Shown: one piece after another, positions 1,144 through 24,710 of the stretch | How positions within the stretch are numbered: position 1 is the first letter of the stretch | Layout: each line of letters opens with the position of its first letter | IMG/VR virus record: IMGVR_UViG_3300000571_000003 | Span: 21,812 to 85,811 of that record | Reading direction: 5' to 3' (one strand) | DNA: 64,000 bases | Origin: a virus | Lineage: Duplodnaviria > Heunggongvirae > Uroviricota > Caudoviricetes | Translations under genes and position numbers: made by a program | The notes under the pieces: model-generated | Seen by the model: only the letters and a program-made list of their open reading frames with translations | Database searches by the model: none | Told to the model about the DNA's origin: nothing

Positions 1144-3918
1144 CTAATAAGAAAAACCACTAGGGAGATGTGATGCATAATTGAGCTGAGTGAGTGGTTT
1201 ATCATAAAGAACTTTAAATCCTTGATATCCTATGCCGGTTGCCATAATTGTATCATCATGAAACCCTGGCTGTGGCTTCATATTATTAGATGCATCATAA
1301 ATGAACGTAGACATCTCATCTAAAATTTCCTTACTATGTATTATTAAAGTCTCATCTCTAACTGCTTGTGCAAAATCATCTATCAATAATGGCCTTGTAA
1401 GTTTTGTAGTCTTCCACCCAAGTTTTACACCCCATGCAGACGCAATCTTTTCAAAATGAGCTGGTCTGAAATACATTGATGGATATATTAATTGTTTTAA
1501 AACAGTTACTGTTGTAAGTCCATGATTATTAATTTCTGGAATCATGAGTGCATTATTATATCTTCTACCCCATGCATTTAATTTTGCTCCAAACTTATCT
1601 GGCTCTATATGTCCCTTAAAAAATGCTACCTCTTCGCCAGTCATCCTATCTAATATTACTGCAACAGAATAATCTCCACCATCTACTCCTTCTGCAACAT
1701 CTGCTCCAACAACATACAACTTACTCATTTCCGGTTCTCTATATATCCTTAGATCATCAGATATTCTAACTTTATATTCCGTTCCATCTGGTGCTTTTAC
1801 ATTATCACCAACAAGTAATACATTCTTTCTTTGTCTTCTAACAGCCATCTGATCAAATACCATTCTTCCTGATGCAAGAAATTCAAGACTATACTCTTGA
1901 GCAAACTTACTTGGATTATTCATTCTCCTTTCAATGGTCTTTATCTCCTCTTCTGTATAATCCCACCACCATCCATACTCTTTCTTTATATAATCATTAT
2001 CGTCAGCCATCCACATTCTATGATATACGTTTCCAATGCCTCTAGGGGTTTGATGACCAATAATTCCACTATAGGTTACAGTATGACCGTCATCAACCGT
2101 AAAATCATAAACATTCTCTTCTATTGGAACTATTGAAACAATATTATCATAATAATATTTTTTATCATATAATTCTTTTATATCTTCATATGTTTTTGAT
2201 TCTTTATTTCTACATATATCCAATATCATACCCAGTATCTTATATGTAATATCACCACTCTTAGAATAAAAACTTTTATTTAATCCTCTTGATATATCAG
2301 AATATTTCAATCCAAGCTCTTTCATGTACTTTTTTAATATCAATCCAACCCCCGGTATTTTTTCAAGACGACAAAAATTATATTTCCTTAATATTTTTCC
2401 ACAATCCTGTTTTCTTTTAATTCTAAATCCAATTTTTTCTAAAAATATAATACTATGACTTTCTTCAATCTCTAACTTATACCCACTAGACCAAACTTTT
2501 ACCTTTTTACTTGGTGGAGCGTTGTAAGTATACGTCCTACTTATTATTCCAAAATTCAAAAGAATAACTCTTAATACATCAATCATTTTTTTACTGGTGC
2601 TTATAAAAGAAACCGATCCGCGATCTTTTCTACAACTTCCATCAGCATCAAATAACCCCTGTAAAAATGAAACAACATTATCTCTACTCCACGATAGAAC
2701 AACCACTGGTATCTCTTTTTTAGGTGCCTTTGTTTTTTTCCATCCTATAAAAATATTTAAAAATTCAACAAAAGACTCATTTTTACATATATAGTGATAG
2801 TAATCATCACCATTTGATTGTTTAAACCTTAGACCAAAAGGTTGGTTTAACAAAAAACTAGAAACATCATCATCAATAGTAGTAACAACAACTCTTCCTT
2901 GTTTAAAATCAATATAGCCATCGCCCAATATCAACCCAAGCAAATATGCTAAATCTGAAGTTATCTCTTTCGGATTAAATAATTTTATAAAACCCTTATT
3001 AAAACCATATTGCGTTGGTTCCCAATCAATACTGTTATTATTTCCCCATATCTCTTGTCCATATTTTATCGCCAAAAAATCCCCAATACGTAAATTTTTT
3101 GATTCTATAAACTCCAATTTTTCTCCTCTTAATACATACAACTTATGCACAGATGACATCCCAAGTTCATAGCCATGCTTTGTTTTAATCCTATATCCAT
3201 TTTTTATTCCGCTATTATAATATGTTTTTGTTGGTTTTAAACCGTAGTGCCCATCAAGCAATATTTTTTTACCCTCTGAAAAACCTAAAGAATTATTTTC
3301 CCAATCATGAATATCTTCAACAAAAACAAGTCCATTTTCTGTTAATACAATAGTATCACCAGTGACACATGACTCAATTATAATCTGTCCGCCAATTGGA
3401 ACAGATGCCTCAAGTGTAGACATTTTTTCTTCTGCCTTTTCCCATGCAGAAAGTTCAGTTAAAAGAACATTGTGCAAAGTGTAGCCTCTACCTACATTTT
3501 CTGTTGAAGGAAGAACAATAATCTTAGAATCTATTGCTGGAAAACTTATTTCAGACTTAGAATTATATTGAATCTTTGGCCGTATGGATTCTGGAGTAGT
3601 TCTATGAAATGTCTTGACCTTATCTAAAAGTTCCATCGTAAGTTCAGAATTATATCCTATCAATGCCGTATTCACGCCTGGCGTTGTAATTGTTTTATGA
3701 TAGAGATATCCTGTTACAGCAGATGAAAATCCCATCTGCCGAGCCTTCAAGATTATGACACGATTATTATGTTTTAATGTATTGAAAAGATCTTTCTGAG
3801 CCTCTTTCAAGATAAATGGAGCCAAACCTCTATCTTTGGTTTTAATTTGGCAAAAATTTTCGAGATAAAATTTTGGATCTTTTATCTTTTGTATTAAATC
3901 TGTATCTTTTATATTCAT
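1144..3918 (-). CDS. terL: terminase large subunit (ATPase + RNaseH-like nuclease) carrying an in-frame intein
   Basis: N-extein ILKARQMGFSS Walker-A-like motif of terminase ATPases; C-extein EYSLEF..., acidic nuclease motifs LYVVGADVAEGVDGGDYSVAVILD and FHDDTIMATGI; residues 184-623 are an intein. Confidence 0.8.
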   Translation of the reverse strand: MNIKDTDLIQKIKDPKFYLENFCQIKTKDRGLAPFILKEAQKDLFNTLKHNNRVIILKARQMGFSSAVTGYLYHKTITTPGVNTALIGYNSELTMELLDKVKTFHRTTPESIRPKIQYNSKSEISFPAIDSKIIVLPSTENVGRGYTLHNVLLTELSAWEKAEEKMSTLEASVPIGGQIIIESCVTGDTIVLTENGLVFVEDIHDWENNSLGFSEGKKILLDGHYGLKPTKTYYNSGIKNGYRIKTKHGYELGMSSVHKLYVLRGEKLEFIESKNLRIGDFLAIKYGQEIWGNNNSIDWEPTQYGFNKGFIKLFNPKEITSDLAYLLGLILGDGYIDFKQGRVVVTTIDDDVSSFLLNQPFGLRFKQSNGDDYYHYICKNESFVEFLNIFIGWKKTKAPKKEIPVVVLSWSRDNVVSFLQGLFDADGSCRKDRGSVSFISTSKKMIDVLRVILLNFGIISRTYTYNAPPSKKVKVWSSGYKLEIEESHSIIFLEKIGFRIKRKQDCGKILRKYNFCRLEKIPGVGLILKKYMKELGLKYSDISRGLNKSFYSKSGDITYKILGMILDICRNKESKTYEDIKELYDKKYYYDNIVSIVPIEENVYDFTVDDGHTVTYSGIIGHQTPRGIGNVYHRMWMADDNDYIKKEYGWWWDYTEEEIKTIERRMNNPSKFAQEYSLEFLASGRMVFDQMAVRRQRKNVLLVGDNVKAPDGTEYKVRISDDLRIYREPEMSKLYVVGADVAEGVDGGDYSVAVILDRMTGEEVAFFKGHIEPDKFGAKLNAWGRRYNNALMIPEINNHGLTTVTVLKQLIYPSMYFRPAHFEKIASAWGVKLGWKTTKLTRPLLIDDFAQAVRDETLIIHSKEILDEMSTFIYDASNNMKPQPGFHDDTIMATGIGYQGFKVLYDKPLTQLNYASHLPSGFSY
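2050..3369 (-). mobile_element. intein (~440 aa) with LAGLIDADG homing endonuclease domain, inserted in terL
   Basis: Begins CVTGDTIVLTENG (Cys1, block A); two LAGLIDADG motifs LAYLLGLILGDGYI and FLQGLFDADGSC; ends VYDFTVDDGHTVTYSGIIGHQ followed by Thr (penultimate His, C-terminal Gln rather than Asn). Confidence 0.7.
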
Positions 3919-3920
3919 AT

Positions 3921-4457
3921 TTATTCATAAATACTTTTGCTAACATCCTCTTCTAATTCTAATTCCTTTTGCTTTCTAACACTATCAGGAATCTCTGGTG
4001 TCTTTACCTCATAGTCAACATCTATTTTTGCTGATTCCAATACGCCAATATCTCTATTTTTTTCTATAGTCTTCATTAGAACCTCCTCCCATCCAGATGT
4101 GTCACCGCCTTCATCCTCTCTATAAGAGTCTAATCCTAAAGATTTTAATAATATCTGATATCCCTTTAATCTTACATCATCTTTCTCCGCAGTATCACAA
4201 ACATTCTTAATACCGCTTGCTATGTAATCAAAGTTTATACCAAGTTTTGAAAGAGCTCTATGATATTCTTTTCTAATTGATAATTTATCAAAAGTCCTAT
4301 ATACATCAGCAACACTTCTTGCTCCTATCATATCTCTTAATTTCTTTGGGTCATTAGTGACTGCCATTGCTTTCAATAGCAAAACTTGTTGCATCGTATT
4401 CTGCGTTGTTGATTTATAGTAACCATTTACATATGTTACTGGTTTTAATTTCTTCAT
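3921..4457 (-). CDS. hypothetical protein, candidate terminase small subunit
   Basis: 178-aa ORF immediately upstream of terL with stop/start overlap; assignment by synteny only. Confidence 0.3.
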   Translation of the reverse strand: MKKLKPVTYVNGYYKSTTQNTMQQVLLLKAMAVTNDPKKLRDMIGARSVADVYRTFDKLSIRKEYHRALSKLGINFDYIASGIKNVCDTAEKDDVRLKGYQILLKSLGLDSYREDEGGDTSGWEEVLMKTIEKNRDIGVLESAKIDVDYEVKTPEIPDSVRKQKELELEEDVSKSIYE

Positions 4458-21234: not shown

Positions 21235-21645
21235 TTATTTATAAAAATTTTTTATCCAATCAATAAATGATTCTTTTGTTAATTCAACATCATTATATAC
21301 TCCTTTTGTATCACCTCTTGTATCACCTCCTACTCCACCTACTTCTGAAAGCTTTCTACTTAAATCACTATTCTTTTTATTTTCCTCTTTTATTTTTATC
21401 TCCTCTTCTTGTTTTCTCTTATTCTCAATTATTTTTTTATTTAATTTATCTTCAAGATCTGCTAATGATATACCGACTTTCATATAAAATAAAACCCTAT
21501 CGCAAATAAATTTTTCATGAGCATAATATCTGACAACAAAATTAGAATTACTCAAACCATTATTAACTAACCGTATATCAATACCGTTGTCTCTATGTAA
21601 TCTTCTTACAATCTTTTCATATTTTTCTAATTCATATATGTTCAT
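21235..21645 (-). CDS. hypothetical protein
   Basis: 136-aa ORF overlapping helicase stop. Confidence 0.5.
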   Translation of the reverse strand: MNIYELEKYEKIVRRLHRDNGIDIRLVNNGLSNSNFVVRYYAHEKFICDRVLFYMKVGISLADLEDKLNKKIIENKRKQEEEIKIKEENKKNSDLSRKLSEVGGVGGDTRGDTKGVYNDVELTKESFIDWIKNFYK

Positions 21646-24407
21646 AATTTCCTTTTTTTAGATTCTTCTTTCATAAGTTTAAGAAGATCTGACATTACAC
21701 TTGTTTGTTTCTTTTTAATAATCTTACCATCTATTAATTGATCAAAAATATCTTGCTTTTTTACTAATAGTTCCCTTATAACATTATCAATTGTGTTATT
21801 AACATAAAGCTGATAAATGGCTATAGATTCTGAGGTTGACCCAATTCTATGAATCCTATCTATGGCTTGAGCATGATCACTTGGAAGAAAACTGTAATCA
21901 AGAAATACAACATTTGTAGCCGCAGTTAATGTTATACCAATACCAGCACTTTTAATACCTCCAAAGAATATCTTCTTATTTGGATTTAATTGAAAGTCCT
22001 CAACAATACTCTGTCTTTCTTTTGCATCAACAGAACCAATAAGTAAAACAGATTCATTCTTAAATATATTATGCAACTGTTCTAATGGTTCATTATAGCA
22101 AGAAAACACAACAACCTTCTCACCGCTATCAACTATATCCCTTATAAGATCTTCTGACTCCTGTTTCTTTCCTCTCGTTGTTATCTGTCTTAAATATCCA
22201 AGCTTTACCAATCCTTCTGCTCTCATTGATTTTTCTACACCTTCTTCGTCTTTTCCTTGTACATCATAGAGATAATCAATGAAATCATTTTCAGCCATAT
22301 TATATTCCTGTCTCATTTGATCTGATAATTTCACGGGAATATTTATAAATCTCTTTTCCGGAAGTTCTTTGAGAACCTGTGCCTTTGTTCTTCTAAGAAA
22401 ATATCTCGATATCCTTCCCTGTAACTCCTCCATGTTTGATGCTCCCTTATCGTTCCATCCAAATCTATCATTAAAAGCGGCACAATATTTTGTCGCATAC
22501 ATATAATAATTATTCCATACATTCGCATCCATCATAGCAAGACCATTGAATAACTCATTTGGTCTAGATAGAAGTGGAGTTCCTGACAAAAGAATGTTTG
22601 ATTTAATATTCTTTGCTAAAAGTTTTGTGAGTTTTGATCTCCGTGCCCGGGAATTTTTAATACAATTCGAAACTAAAACTCCTTCTGCAAAATAATTATT
22701 ATTACTGTCTATTTCAAGGTTATAAACGAATTTATTTTCTGTACTATTAAATCTGGATTCTCCAGAATCTCCTCGTTCCAAAATCTCAATACTGACCACC
22801 CTAGATATTCTAATACCTCCGTTTTTCTTCTGTCTAAGTATTTCCATTTCTTTGTCTTGTGAGTTAAGCCATCCACCTCTATTGCTACTTTTTTCTCTAC
22901 ATAAGCTAAATCTACAGAATAATGATTTGGCAAGCATTCGAATACTTTCTTTGCATCTCCTGTTGGTATTGAATATTCCATCTTTAGACCAGTTAGTTCC
23001 ATTAACATTCTTTGTGGTTTTGTTATCGTACCATTTCCTCCACGTTTTAAAAATGAAGGATGTTCGCCCCACCATCTTTTTTGTCCAGCTCTTAATTTTT
23101 TTATAAACTCCGGATCTTTGTTCATTCTTTTCATTCTCTCCGAGGCTTTTGGTTTTTTTGTTCCAATATTCGCTTTCTGTGCTATTTTTATTATTTCTCG
23201 TTGTCTCTCCTTTATATGTGGAAGATTCGTTCTCCATTTTGCTGAACAAGATGTTCCACAAAAACGTCTTTTTTCCGATACTATACCTTGTGATTTTATA
23301 TAAAAATCCACAGAACAAATTAGACATCTTTTTTTTACTAAAGGTTTCCTGTTCCTTTGAAGAGCTGCTATTGTTTGAGGAAGCGTATTTACATATTTCC
23401 CATTGCAAGAAAGACAACAAAGTTTTGCGGTTGTCTTTCCCTTCTTTCTCGTAAGAAACATCTTCTTGCAAAATAGACAATTCCTCTCCACTAGATAAAT
23501 GTATTGCTTCTTTAAATCCGGAGGTGGTCCATATTTTATGATTCTCTGTACAAATGATTTCTCCATATTCATGAATTATTTTTACCATTTTAAATGGAGA
23601 TAAATTTTTAAAATAATTATTTATCTTCTTATATTCTAATTCATTATTAGATAAATTACAAGACAACACGGACAAAGACATTTTTCCCTCAACTATGTCT
23701 CCTATTTTTAATAATCCAATATTTGTCATTACCTCTGTTTCATATGGAAAGCAATGAAACTCGTCTATTATCAAGCATTCAAACTTAATCTTGCTTAGAC
23801 CATCAAAAAACTTATGCAATAAATCATAATTAATTATTACTACATCAATACTCTTGGGGATATCTTTTAATTTTGAATCCCCGTCTATGACAAAAGAAGA
23901 TAAGTGTGTCCACTTCTTAACTTCATTTTCCCAGTTATATTTTACAGACGCAGGACATATAACTAATGTTTTTTTTACCTCCTCATGGGCTACATAGGCC
24001 AATGCCTGTACCGATTTTCCAATTCCCATCTGATCAGCCAGTATAGCCCTACCCTTATTATTCACAAAAAACTGAACACCAACCTTCTGATACGGAAACA
24101 ATTCCCCGGCATCATGCTTTATATTCTTTACCTCAAAATCAGTATTCATCATCGCCTTTATCATTATTGCCGTATCAGCTATCCTTTTATTCTCCTCAAG
24201 TTCTTTTGGAATTTCAGTATACGGATACTTCTTCTTTATCTCAAAAGCTATTCTGTCATCATGAAATCTCCATTTATTCTCATTCCAAGCAAACTCCTTC
24301 CATCCATATTTCTCCTTTAATGAGCGACAAAACTCTAAAACATCTGTGTTAAATTTAAAAGTAAAGGCATACGAGTGATAAGTTGTCTTCTCTATCTCAA
24401 CTTTCAT
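21642..24407 (-). CDS. SNF2-family DNA helicase/translocase interrupted by an intein
   Basis: ILADQMGIGKSVQA (motif I), LIIDEFH (motif II) split from IKNSRARRSKL...ILLSGTPL (motif III) by 363 aa; C-terminal helicase motifs SAGIGITLTAATNVVFLD and QAIDRIHRIGS. Confidence 0.8.
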   Translation of the reverse strand: MKVEIEKTTYHSYAFTFKFNTDVLEFCRSLKEKYGWKEFAWNENKWRFHDDRIAFEIKKKYPYTEIPKELEENKRIADTAIMIKAMMNTDFEVKNIKHDAGELFPYQKVGVQFFVNNKGRAILADQMGIGKSVQALAYVAHEEVKKTLVICPASVKYNWENEVKKWTHLSSFVIDGDSKLKDIPKSIDVVIINYDLLHKFFDGLSKIKFECLIIDEFHCFPYETEVMTNIGLLKIGDIVEGKMSLSVLSCNLSNNELEYKKINNYFKNLSPFKMVKIIHEYGEIICTENHKIWTTSGFKEAIHLSSGEELSILQEDVSYEKEGKDNRKTLLSFLQWEICKYASSNNSSSSKEQETFSKKKMSNLFCGFLYKITRYSIGKKTFLWNILFSKMENESSTYKGETTRNNKNSTESEYWNKKTKSLGENEKNEQRSGVYKKIKSWTKKMVGRTSFIFKTWRKWYDNKTTKNVNGTNWSKDGIFNTNRRCKESIRMLAKSLFCRFSLCREKSSNRGGWLNSQDKEMEILRQKKNGGIRISRVVSIEILERGDSGESRFNSTENKFVYNLEIDSNNNYFAEGVLVSNCIKNSRARRSKLTKLLAKNIKSNILLSGTPLLSRPNELFNGLAMMDANVWNNYYMYATKYCAAFNDRFGWNDKGASNMEELQGRISRYFLRRTKAQVLKELPEKRFINIPVKLSDQMRQEYNMAENDFIDYLYDVQGKDEEGVEKSMRAEGLVKLGYLRQITTRGKKQESEDLIRDIVDSGEKVVVFSCYNEPLEQLHNIFKNESVLLIGSVDAKERQSIVEDFQLNPNKKIFFGGIKSAGIGITLTAATNVVFLDYSFLPSDHAQAIDRIHRIGSTSESIAIYQLYVNNTIDNVIRELLVKKQDIFDQLIDGKIIKKKQTSVMSDLLKLMKEESKKRKL
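22665..23753 (-). mobile_element. intein (363 aa) in SNF2 helicase DExH box, with low-complexity linker instead of in-frame endonuclease
   Basis: Begins CFPYETEVMTNIGLLKIGDIVEG (block A), block B ICTENHKIWT, ends KFVYNLEIDSNNNYFAEGVLVSN followed by Cys; central region in frame 0 is K/N/S-rich filler. Confidence 0.65.
22709..23572 (-). CDS. DUF559/Vsr-like endonuclease with zinc-ribbon N-terminus, encoded out of frame entirely inside the helicase intein
   Basis: 287-aa ORF in +1 frame relative to host gene; CLFCKK..CCLSCNG and CLICS..CGTSC pairs; C-terminus VDLAYVEKKVAIEVDGLTHKTKKWKYLDRRKTEVLEYLGWSVLRFWNEEI is the hallmark of DUF559 (EVDG.H ... GW.VLRFWN.E). Confidence 0.55.
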   Translation of the reverse strand: MNMEKSFVQRIIKYGPPPDLKKQYIYLVERNCLFCKKMFLTRKKGKTTAKLCCLSCNGKYVNTLPQTIAALQRNRKPLVKKRCLICSVDFYIKSQGIVSEKRRFCGTSCSAKWRTNLPHIKERQREIIKIAQKANIGTKKPKASERMKRMNKDPEFIKKLRAGQKRWWGEHPSFLKRGGNGTITKPQRMLMELTGLKMEYSIPTGDAKKVFECLPNHYSVDLAYVEKKVAIEVDGLTHKTKKWKYLDRRKTEVLEYLGWSVLRFWNEEILENPDLIVQKINSFITLK

Positions 24408-24410
24408 AAT

Positions 24411-24635
24411 TTATAATATTTCTAATATATCTTTTATCTTTTTTCCTTCTTTCTTAAATGCAATTATTTTCTTAATATCCTTCAATGCCTCTGACCTTTT
24501 AAAGACCTTCATCTTACCAACAAGGTATTCTGGATTTAATAATCCCTGATTACAATAATAATTGAGCATGCTTTTATTTATGCCCAATTCTATCGCAAGA
24601 TCACCTAATGACGCTACGTCTTCACCTTTTTTCAT
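24411..24635 (-). CDS. MerR-like HTH DNA-binding protein
   Basis: LGDLAIELGINKSMLNYYCNQGLL helix-turn-helix; first gene after promoter copy 2. Confidence 0.45.
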   Translation of the reverse strand: MKKGEDVASLGDLAIELGINKSMLNYYCNQGLLNPEYLVGKMKVFKRSEALKDIKKIIAFKKEGKKIKDILEIL

Positions 24636-24681
24636 ACTCCATTAATTAATGTTTAAAAAAAGTATATCGCTATCTTTAAAT

Positions 24682-24710
24682 AGTATAGCATATTTATCAT
24701 CACTTGTCAA
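24682..24710 (-). promoter_or_regulatory. sigma70-type promoter (family copy 2) driving minus operon 24635->16880
   Basis: Minus strand aCTTGACAAGTgatgataaatATGCTATACTatt: TTGACA-17-TATACT. Confidence 0.6.

Follow-up and report, generated by a model that had tools for sequence, protein, structure and literature searches.

Can one strand of phage DNA encode both an intein and, in another reading frame, the endonuclease that would mobilize it? The question is raised by a helicase gene of a Caudoviricetes virus, found in the 64,000-nucleotide stretch of DNA that was analysed here and is referred to as the window (IMG/VR record IMGVR_UViG_3300000571_000003, positions 21,812 to 85,811). The gene is interrupted by an intein, and a second open reading frame (ORF) covers the middle of that intein. 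The original prediction, made from the sequence of the window, considered either an endonuclease gene genuinely nested in a mini-intein or an in-frame endonuclease domain displaced by two compensating frameshifts of the assembly. The locus is very probably a composite mobile element, which consists of a class-1 intein at motif II of an SNF2 helicase and a separate homing-endonuclease gene read in the +1 frame over the middle of the intein; splicing, translation of the nested gene and cleavage by its product are all predicted. The features concerned are listed below, in window coordinates.

21642..24407, minus strand: SNF2-family helicase precursor gene, 921 amino acids (ORF list and Pfam)
23754..24407, minus strand: N-extein, terminating in motif II, ...LIIDEFH (ORF and boundary reading)
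22665..23753, minus strand: class-1 intein in frame 0, helicase residues 219-581, 363 amino acids (Pfam, sequence boundaries and homologous inteins at the same motif)
23469..23753, minus strand: N-terminal splicing domain, intein residues 1-95, block B included (motifs, frame-0 conservation and beta strands in a low-confidence AlphaFold2 (AF2) model)
22809..23468, minus strand: frame-0 linker, intein residues 96-315, stop-free, hydrophilic and unconserved as protein (frame identity and composition; also lowest values of pLDDT, the predicted score of the local distance difference test, which are weak evidence)
22665..22808, minus strand: C-terminal splicing domain, intein residues 316-363, with the SRVVSIEILERG strand, block F, block G and the terminal Asn (frame-0 motif conserved in relatives)
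21642..22664, minus strand: C-extein, beginning CIKNSRARRSK... (ORF and boundary reading)
22709..23572, minus strand: nested, predicted homing-endonuclease gene, +1 relative to the helicase, 287 amino acids, stop codon TAG at 22709-22711 (ORF list and Pfam)
23402..23479, minus strand: first zinc ribbon, C32-x2-C35 ... C53/C54-x2-C57 (sequence reading; beta hairpins E25-31/E38-42 of the model)
23246..23326, minus strand: second zinc ribbon, C83, C86, C105 and C109 (cysteines invariant in the family alignment; weak matches to YacG, MYM and FCS-type zinc fingers)
22712..23020, minus strand: Vsr-like/DUF559 (EDxHD-type) nuclease domain, residues ~185-287 (Pfam, profile, Foldseek and invariant residues)

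The helicase and its intein

The helicase ORF matches the Pfam families SNF2-rel_dom (E=5.6e-34) and Helicase_C (E=1.6e-13), together with a split match to Intein_splicing (PF14890, E=7.7e-9) which spans helicase residues 233-581 and whose profile positions 10-155 are divided around the insert. The original prediction had an intein splitting the helicase between DEFH|C and VSN|C; its coordinates and its junctions were reproduced. The junctions read LIIDEFH|CFPYETEV...GVLVSN|CIKNS and the insertion site is motif II (Walker B, DEFH|C). The intein blocks can be read from the sequence: the C1 nucleophile (CFPYETEV), block B (CTENH, which has the TxxH signature), block F (FVYNLEID), the terminal Asn and the Cys at +1. 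The same blocks are present in the relatives, which end in HN, SN, KN or GN. Once the intein is removed, the host protein is colinear with its intein-less homologues, in which motif II is DEFHFIKNSRARRSK; 99% of the predicted spliced helicase (558 residues) is covered in alignments with intein-less homologues, which have 554-570 residues.

The linker, in frame 0, is rich in K, S, E, N and R, and its hydrophobicity is below that of both real proteins. It matches no endonuclease family and nothing in Pfam or PHROG, which agrees with the earlier description of the middle of frame 0 as filler devoid of endonuclease motifs.

Two other arrangements were considered and set aside. The first, an endonuclease encoded in a group I or group II intron, would have no need for an open frame 0, and the Rfam scan of 21600-24700 gave no intron match at E<=1 (nor any frameshift element). 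The second is a fractured gene with a naturally split intein, but frame 0 is continuous in the window, so the intein is predicted to splice in cis.

The nested protein

The ORF at 22709..23572 encodes the 287-residue protein with zinc ribbon and DUF559 that had been described before. Its Pfam match to DUF559 has an E-value of 2.4e-15, and it also matches REase_MTES_1575. The protein database contains 83 homologues, every one of which has DUF559. D221, E232, D234, H238 and the four cysteines of the second ribbon are invariant in an alignment of 33 sequences, in which D247 and K250 are conserved at 90% or more; the first ribbon is missing from some relatives. The D/E/D/H set would fit the pattern of conserved catalytic residues by which EDxHD endonucleases are recognized.

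The profile built from the alignment matches 3HRL, a DUF559 structure (2.8e-14), and 3R3P, which is I-Bth0305I (2.6e-3). The AF2 model of the nested protein has a pLDDT of 89.5, and its first Foldseek match in the PDB is the catalytic domain of I-Bth0305I (3r3p_B; probability 1.00, template modelling (TM) score of 0.66, target-normalised), followed by 3hrl. On these grounds the nested protein is a predicted homing endonuclease of the Vsr-like/EDxHD type, composed of two zinc ribbons, a helical linker and a DUF559 nuclease domain.

The exact 287-residue protein is not found among ~15 billion predicted proteins, which do include the enclosing helicase, from several sources. At least one homologue (P0006), from an NCBI record of a metagenome-assembled genome (MAG) and evidently the gene in L015/L094, is annotated as 'endonuclease domain-containing protein': there, the nested gene was called.

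Two open frames

In the ~1900 nucleotides of the helicase gene not covered by the nested ORF, 63 stops occur in the +1 frame (about one every 30 nucleotides); inside the ORF, this frame has none over 867 nucleotides. Frame 0 has no stop either in the 288 codons of the overlap. The number expected was obtained by resampling synonymous codons for the nested protein according to the codon usage of the gene itself: the mean is 22.4 frame-0 stops, and not one of 5000 resamples is stop-free. The density of stops in the equivalent frame of the exteins leads to an expectation of 37.8. At nine other loci, frame 0 has no stop either, against 7-52 expected, and for each locus no more than 3 of the 5000 resamples are stop-free. 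The GC content is 33% in the helicase gene and 34% in the window.

How frame 0 stays open can be read in the codons of the nested gene. A frame-0 stop requires a nested codon ending in T before a codon starting with AA, AG or GA. At the 98 positions where this could happen, no codon ends in T (0/98), compared to 72 of 189 (38%) elsewhere, and this complete absence (0/N) is observed in all 10 loci tested. Both frames are open far beyond chance, as had been claimed from the window, and frame 0 is held stop-free by selection, through codon choice in the endonuclease gene.

Conservation of the two frames

The alignment of the nested proteins was threaded onto the codons and the amino-acid identities of the three frames were compared; the comparison is thus identity-based. 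In the nested frame, amino acids are identical about twice as often as in frame 0 (for example 0.43 vs 0.23, or 0.56 vs 0.31). Frame 0 is no more conserved than the third frame, which is filled with stops, and it follows that the central ~220 codons of frame 0 are a spacer, selected only for readability. The lowest nucleotide identity is at position 3 of the codons of the nested gene. Codon-position conservation had been named as a check on the overlap, and the reverse pattern, with frame 0 conserved and the +1 frame not, is absent.

A profile by blocks, calculated from 75 unique sequences, shows that the nested frame is the more conserved in all blocks but the first aligned one (nested codons 13-24), where frame 0 is better conserved and encodes block B and the flanking strand. 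The first codons of the endonuclease overlap block B. At the 3' end, both frames bear conserved motifs over ~45 codons: the nuclease motif LGWSVLRFWNEE... is overprinted on the SRVVSIEILERG strand of the intein, and the C-terminus of the nuclease on block F. Over the central overlap, protein-level conservation, as judged from the alignments, is seen only in the +1 frame, a pattern which points to selection that is purifying for the endonuclease frame and relaxed for the in-frame linker.

The description of the locus as an endonuclease nested in a mini-intein is therefore retained in part. The overlap is genuine, considering the recurrent +1 layout and the avoidance of stops, but the element is not simply a mini-intein plus a passenger, because the ends of the endonuclease overlap block B, the C-terminal splicing strand and block F.

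Alternatively, the frame-0 filler could be a functional domain, such as a regulatory or DNA-binding linker, in which case both proteins would be selected along the whole overlap. Frame 0 is indeed conserved where the overlap begins and where it ends, and it is consistently hydrophilic in composition. However, the conserved ends are the known splicing blocks, the central ~220 codons are no better conserved than the stop-containing third frame, and neither Pfam nor PHROG recognizes a domain in them. A functional filler is considered very unlikely.

Recurrence in other phages and in bacteria

A tblastn search of the GenBank phages with the nested protein returned 40 records, and every match lies under an annotated helicase-type coding sequence (CDS). 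Five records were inspected (Vibrio phage CP-T1, Corynebacterium phage phi673, Pseudomonas phage MR14 and two Vibrio phage groups). In all five, the nested match is in +1 relative to the annotated CDS, the CDS is fully open, the intein is at DE|CHH and the annotation mentions 'helicase' only. A single-protein query of IMG/VR gave five loci, all nested in +1. The ten first loci all (10/10) have the +1 layout. A larger IMG/VR set, the best 80 of 331 loci confirmed with the family alignment, gives the same picture: the gene is nested in +1 in 80/80 and frame 0 is continuous in 79/80. Bacterial genomes and MAGs gave 35 full-length relatives, of which 32 are nested in +1. The same +1 layout is thus found in a total of ~110 other loci examined.

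A blastn search of the GenBank phages with the helicase gene gave no match. The frame-0 intein, used as a query against the protein database, had no match at E<=1e-5; the precursor itself was unmatched, which makes this search uninformative on the size of the family.

These data bear on the possibility that the nuclease is in truth an in-frame domain of the intein, displaced by two compensating indels near 23570 and 22710. Metagenome assemblies do carry such errors, and one sequence alone could not exclude them. However, the middle of frame 0 would then be non-coding and should contain 22-38 stops, and it has none. The same +1 offset is found in the ~110 other loci, isolate phage genomes included. 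Both ends of the +1 ORF fall within splicing blocks: it opens in block B, two codons past a stop of the +1 frame, and closes in block F, so that an in-frame join has no place. Over 4766 nucleotides, an independent assembly (Logan, run ERR2108712) does not differ from the window, and six contigs of the assembly collection contain the precursor protein. Since an artefact leaves the openness of frame 0 unexplained and the layout recurs in independent genomes, the proposal of two compensating frameshifts is refuted, its probability being practically nil.

One of the 80 IMG/VR loci (L036) has a single stop in the frame-0 linker (~3503-3505), the remainder of the host frame and the nested gene being intact. 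This locus may be a naturally split ('fractured') form or an allele that died recently, or the stop may be an error of sequencing. In the chromosome of Polaromonas glacialis (L101, ~3444-4118), the endonuclease ORF looks intact, the former frame-0 linker is ridden with stops and no C-terminal splicing block is recognisable; this locus appears to be the remnant of a composite element.

Some host genes have a second intein, at the P-loop, besides the one at Walker B: L008/L032 (helicase ORF of L008, 1879-5880) and L075 (1430-5344). The P-loop intein of L008 is LAGLIDADG-like by its motifs, and that of L075 matches Pfam HNH_3.

Start and expression of the nested gene

The nested gene probably starts at ATG 23572 or ATG 23566; GTG 23491 is an alternative. 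The residues MNME of the start region recur at the same place in L017. An ATG precedes the first CxxC in 75 of 76 unique nested ORFs, and a GGAG or GAGG is present 4-18 nucleotides upstream of such an ATG in 40% of the loci, compared to 6% for background ATG trinucleotides of the same genes. Across the relatives, the Shine-Dalgarno sequence (SD) is enriched 6- to 9-fold.

In the Vibrio and Pseudomonas phages (L001, ~2560-2585, and the equivalent positions of L003, L004 and L005), the SD GAGG is formed by the frame-0 codons D-E-V (gacGAGGtt...ATG). These codons are at the end of the N-terminal splicing domain, so that the same DNA serves as intein codons and as ribosome-binding site.

The nuclease could instead be produced by a programmed +1 shift of ribosomes out of the helicase/intein frame, which would give a fusion of the N-extein, the N-intein and the nuclease. 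The +1 ORF does open within the N-terminal domain of the intein, the candidate ATGs of the window have no SD, and the position of the start is not strictly kept among close relatives. On the other hand, a frameshift would make unnecessary both the ATG retained before the first zinc ribbon by 75 of 76 relatives and the enrichment of the SD. The free-standing relatives are ordinary genes, and no known frameshift or other RNA element was detected in the region, which is unstructured: RNA folding around the start gives z=0.23, and no regulatory hairpin of the kind present in the loci of Dassa et al. 2009 (PMC2677866) is seen. Frameshifting has a very low probability; the ATGs and the SD enrichment of the relatives point to internal initiation.

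A sigma-70-like promoter 60 nucleotides upstream of the endonuclease ATG was considered and dropped: it is weak, and such sites are not enriched over shuffled sequences (16 vs 10.3±3.5).

Host genes, insertion site and mobility

The original prediction had suggested a search for helicase alleles without the intein. The four nearest homologues of the helicase (56-61% identity) have none, and the site reads DECHYCK(S/N) or DEFHFIK(N/S)S. Among the best 120 helicase homologues, this intein is present only in P0160 and in P0084, which is the window's own sequence; other helicase alleles carry unrelated inteins at other ATPase motifs. Across these homologues, the intein is sporadically distributed among alleles of its host gene.

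The nested form occurs in genes for SNF2 helicases, ResIII/DEAD-type helicases and helicase-N6-methylase fusions, in giant SNF2-type ORFs and in genes for DnaX-like clamp loaders. In every case the intein is inserted at the Asp-Glu of Walker B, and this shared site in diverse hosts fits extein switching through a common nucleotide-binding motif. The register within the motif is variable, the differences amounting to 2-3 codons: most loci have DE|C, the window (23742..23753 / 22653..22664) and the giant ORFs have DExH|C or DExH|S, and P0160 has DExHx|C, as do several IMG/VR loci. The loci noted for a register shift within motif II are P0160, L012, L013, L017, L023, L025, L026, L028 and L052.

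Free-standing relatives of the endonuclease also exist. One (L011, 4001-4837) is downstream of an intein-less SNF2 gene with DEAHYLK, and two others (L114, ~3363-4004, and L121, ~1558-2202) are upstream of intein-less superfamily 2 (SF2) helicases with DESHH and DECHH, respectively. All three directly adjoin the intein-less helicase genes, in the manner of free-standing homing endonucleases that neighbour their targets, and such a position is as expected of the ancestor of a gene which invaded an intein at this motif. The Thy1 (ThyX) gene of L011 (5794-7653, 619 amino acids) has an apparent small intein-like insert (GHS|CYDDKTEVL...).

Proposed mechanism

Ribosomes would read the helicase gene straight through the filler, and the intein would splice itself out, joining DEFH to CIKN to give an active helicase. 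The endonuclease would be made independently, by internal initiation at ATG 23572 or 23566 in this phage and at an SD followed by an ATG in the relatives. In a co-infected cell, it may cut intein-less helicase alleles near motif II, and repair would then copy the intein and the endonuclease gene together. As to its origin, the element may have arisen once, when a free-standing endonuclease gene targeting motif II of a helicase entered a mini-intein whose frame was kept; the composite would then have spread among the Walker-B 'DE..|C' sites of different ATPases.

Several observations weigh against the composite element. The Pfam score of the intein is barely over the threshold (36.0 bits vs 35.8), and its penultimate residue is Ser and not the usual His. 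The AF2 model of the frame-0 intein, based on an alignment of seven sequences, has a mean pLDDT of 38, with strands in the terminal parts only; because this model is too poor, the view of the linker as a disordered filler is based on its non-conservation and its composition. In the window, the start codon is uncertain; the position of the SD and ATG of many relatives is lost (it reads TTA), and there is no SD at the start: the upstream sequence is AT-rich, and the neighbouring phage genes likewise have no SD. Lastly, no near-identical intein-less phage allele was found, a degenerate search for the same flanks giving only helicases at 28% and 46% identity.

Some of these points would also suit a relic, that is to say an intein which persists vertically with an inert insert, the endonuclease being no longer expressed or active. 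The nested gene of the window has neither SD nor demonstrable promoter, and the search gave no near-identical intein-less allele that would point to ongoing homing. Decay does occur, as in L036 (frame-0 stop) and L101. Nevertheless, the ORF of the window is full-length, it retains all the invariant catalytic and zinc-binding residues, and its predicted fold is confident; a dead +1 ORF at 33% GC would gain stops about every 30 nucleotides, and the +1 frame shows the signs of purifying selection across the family. It is unlikely that the endonuclease is a relic.

Beyond the window, a broader reading of the family is slightly favoured. The window element may belong to an old and very large lineage of Walker-B ('DE..|C') inteins in which, throughout its traceable history, the endonuclease has always been a separate gene overprinted in +1 and never a fused domain. 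The ribosome-binding site and the start would be built from intein codons, and GW.V.RF.N.E, the best conserved motif of the nuclease, overprinted on the C-terminal splicing strand. The lineage would have hopped among SNF2 helicases, other SF2 helicases, helicase-methylase fusions and clamp loaders, with register shifts of 0, +2 or +3 codons. It would be the unbroken counterpart of the 'fractured genes' of Dassa et al., and a case of long-term dual coding maintained only by the avoidance of stops in one frame.

Comparison with known systems

The general concept of an out-of-frame intein endonuclease is already known from preprints of 2025-2026, which concern other enzyme families, strands and host genes. 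Gosselin, Arsenault and Gogarten (bioRxiv 10.1101/2025.01.02.630785) described inteins of actinobacteriophages with antisense LAGLIDADG, antisense VSR-like or sense 'frame 3' endonuclease VII-like genes, in DNA polymerase, minor capsid, terminase and thymidylate synthase, and they proposed an origin by invasion of free-standing genes. As here, the endonuclease ORF is between the splicing blocks and out of the intein frame, the host frame is open, and the VSR-like/EDxHD type is represented. The present elements differ in that a VSR-like gene is in +1 on the sense strand, at Walker B of helicases and clamp loaders, outside actinophages and at hundreds of loci.

Phillips et al. (bioRxiv 10.64898/2026.09.14.751524), who cite Gorbalenya 1998 as a precedent, reported a sense-strand '+2 ORF' endonuclease, LAGLIDADG-like by description, in a cyanobacterial dnaX intein. 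The two systems are alike, by description, in the sense-strand ORF over the linker, the frame-dependent selection, the upstream SD, the low-confidence in-frame linker and the sporadic distribution, and some relatives of the present element are in DnaX-like clamp loaders. The endonuclease is different: DUF559/Vsr-like with zinc ribbons, in +1, compared to the LAGLIDADG-like '+2 ORF'.

In the fractured genes of Dassa et al., Vsr-like endonuclease genes lie between the halves of split inteins, in gp41, NrdA/J and IMPDH. Here too, a Vsr-like gene is inside the intein of a phage replication or repair gene, and its 3' end overlaps the coding sequence of the C-intein, by 6-69 bp in the fractured genes and by ~135 bp in the window. 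However, the fractured loci consist of two genes whose products splice in trans, whereas the helicase is encoded in one continuous frame; the host genes and the sites are also different.

The closest structure is that of I-Bth0305I (Taylor et al. 2011, PMC3239194; PDB 3R3P), the EDxHD prototype, which is encoded in a group I intron of recA and whose N-terminal modules are NUMOD-like. Of all structures, the nuclease domain matches this one best, and the two share the Vsr-like fold and the conserved acidic and His residues. In contrast, the present protein is nested in an intein, has zinc ribbons in place of the NUMOD-like modules and is closer in sequence to DUF559 (3HRL). In the ShiLan insertion (Arsenault et al. 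2025, PMC11855218), an HNH endonuclease is hidden out of frame within a phage methylase, and the mode of its translation was left as an open question in that study. Like the present gene, the endonuclease gene is overprinted on an in-frame, stop-free insertion of the host gene, but the element has no splicing domain and its nuclease is of the HNH type.

The Dra Snf2 intein, a class-3 intein cited in papers on class-3 inteins, was set aside as unrelated. A literature search, whose coverage is incomplete and which is weak evidence, found no description of a sense-strand DUF559/EDxHD gene overprinted in Walker-B inteins of helicases or clamp loaders, nor of the size of such a lineage.

Implications

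With respect to annotation, gene callers miss the nuclease, so that a whole class of predicted homing endonucleases is hidden and the inteins which carry them look like 'long mini-inteins' without endonuclease. The codon-pair signature (no NNT before AA, AG or GA) is simple and usable to find further cases. With respect to the evolution of inteins, the locus supports the scenario in which the splicing element comes first and the endonuclease invades later, the free-standing relatives beside intein-less helicases being plausible precursors, and it provides a cis-splicing counterpart to the fractured genes with split inteins. It is also a case of overlapping genes in which one frame is selected as a protein and the other only to remain open. 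In practice, the family offers many naturally insert-tolerant inteins and zinc-ribbon Vsr-type endonucleases, which probably recognise the Walker-B DNA of helicases and ATPases.

Genomic context

The window is phage DNA; among its genes are those for a PrimPol-DnaB, an SbcC-like ATPase, a phiEco32-type ligase and the large subunit of the terminase. A small MerR-like gene (24411..24635, minus strand) is directly upstream of the helicase, and the MerR-helicase order is also found in the contigs of P0160. The gene of the terminase large subunit (1144..3918, minus strand; PHROG matches) contains an intein of the canonical kind, whose LAGLIDADG_3 domain is in frame. Since the intein of the helicase is non-canonical, one phage carries both kinds.

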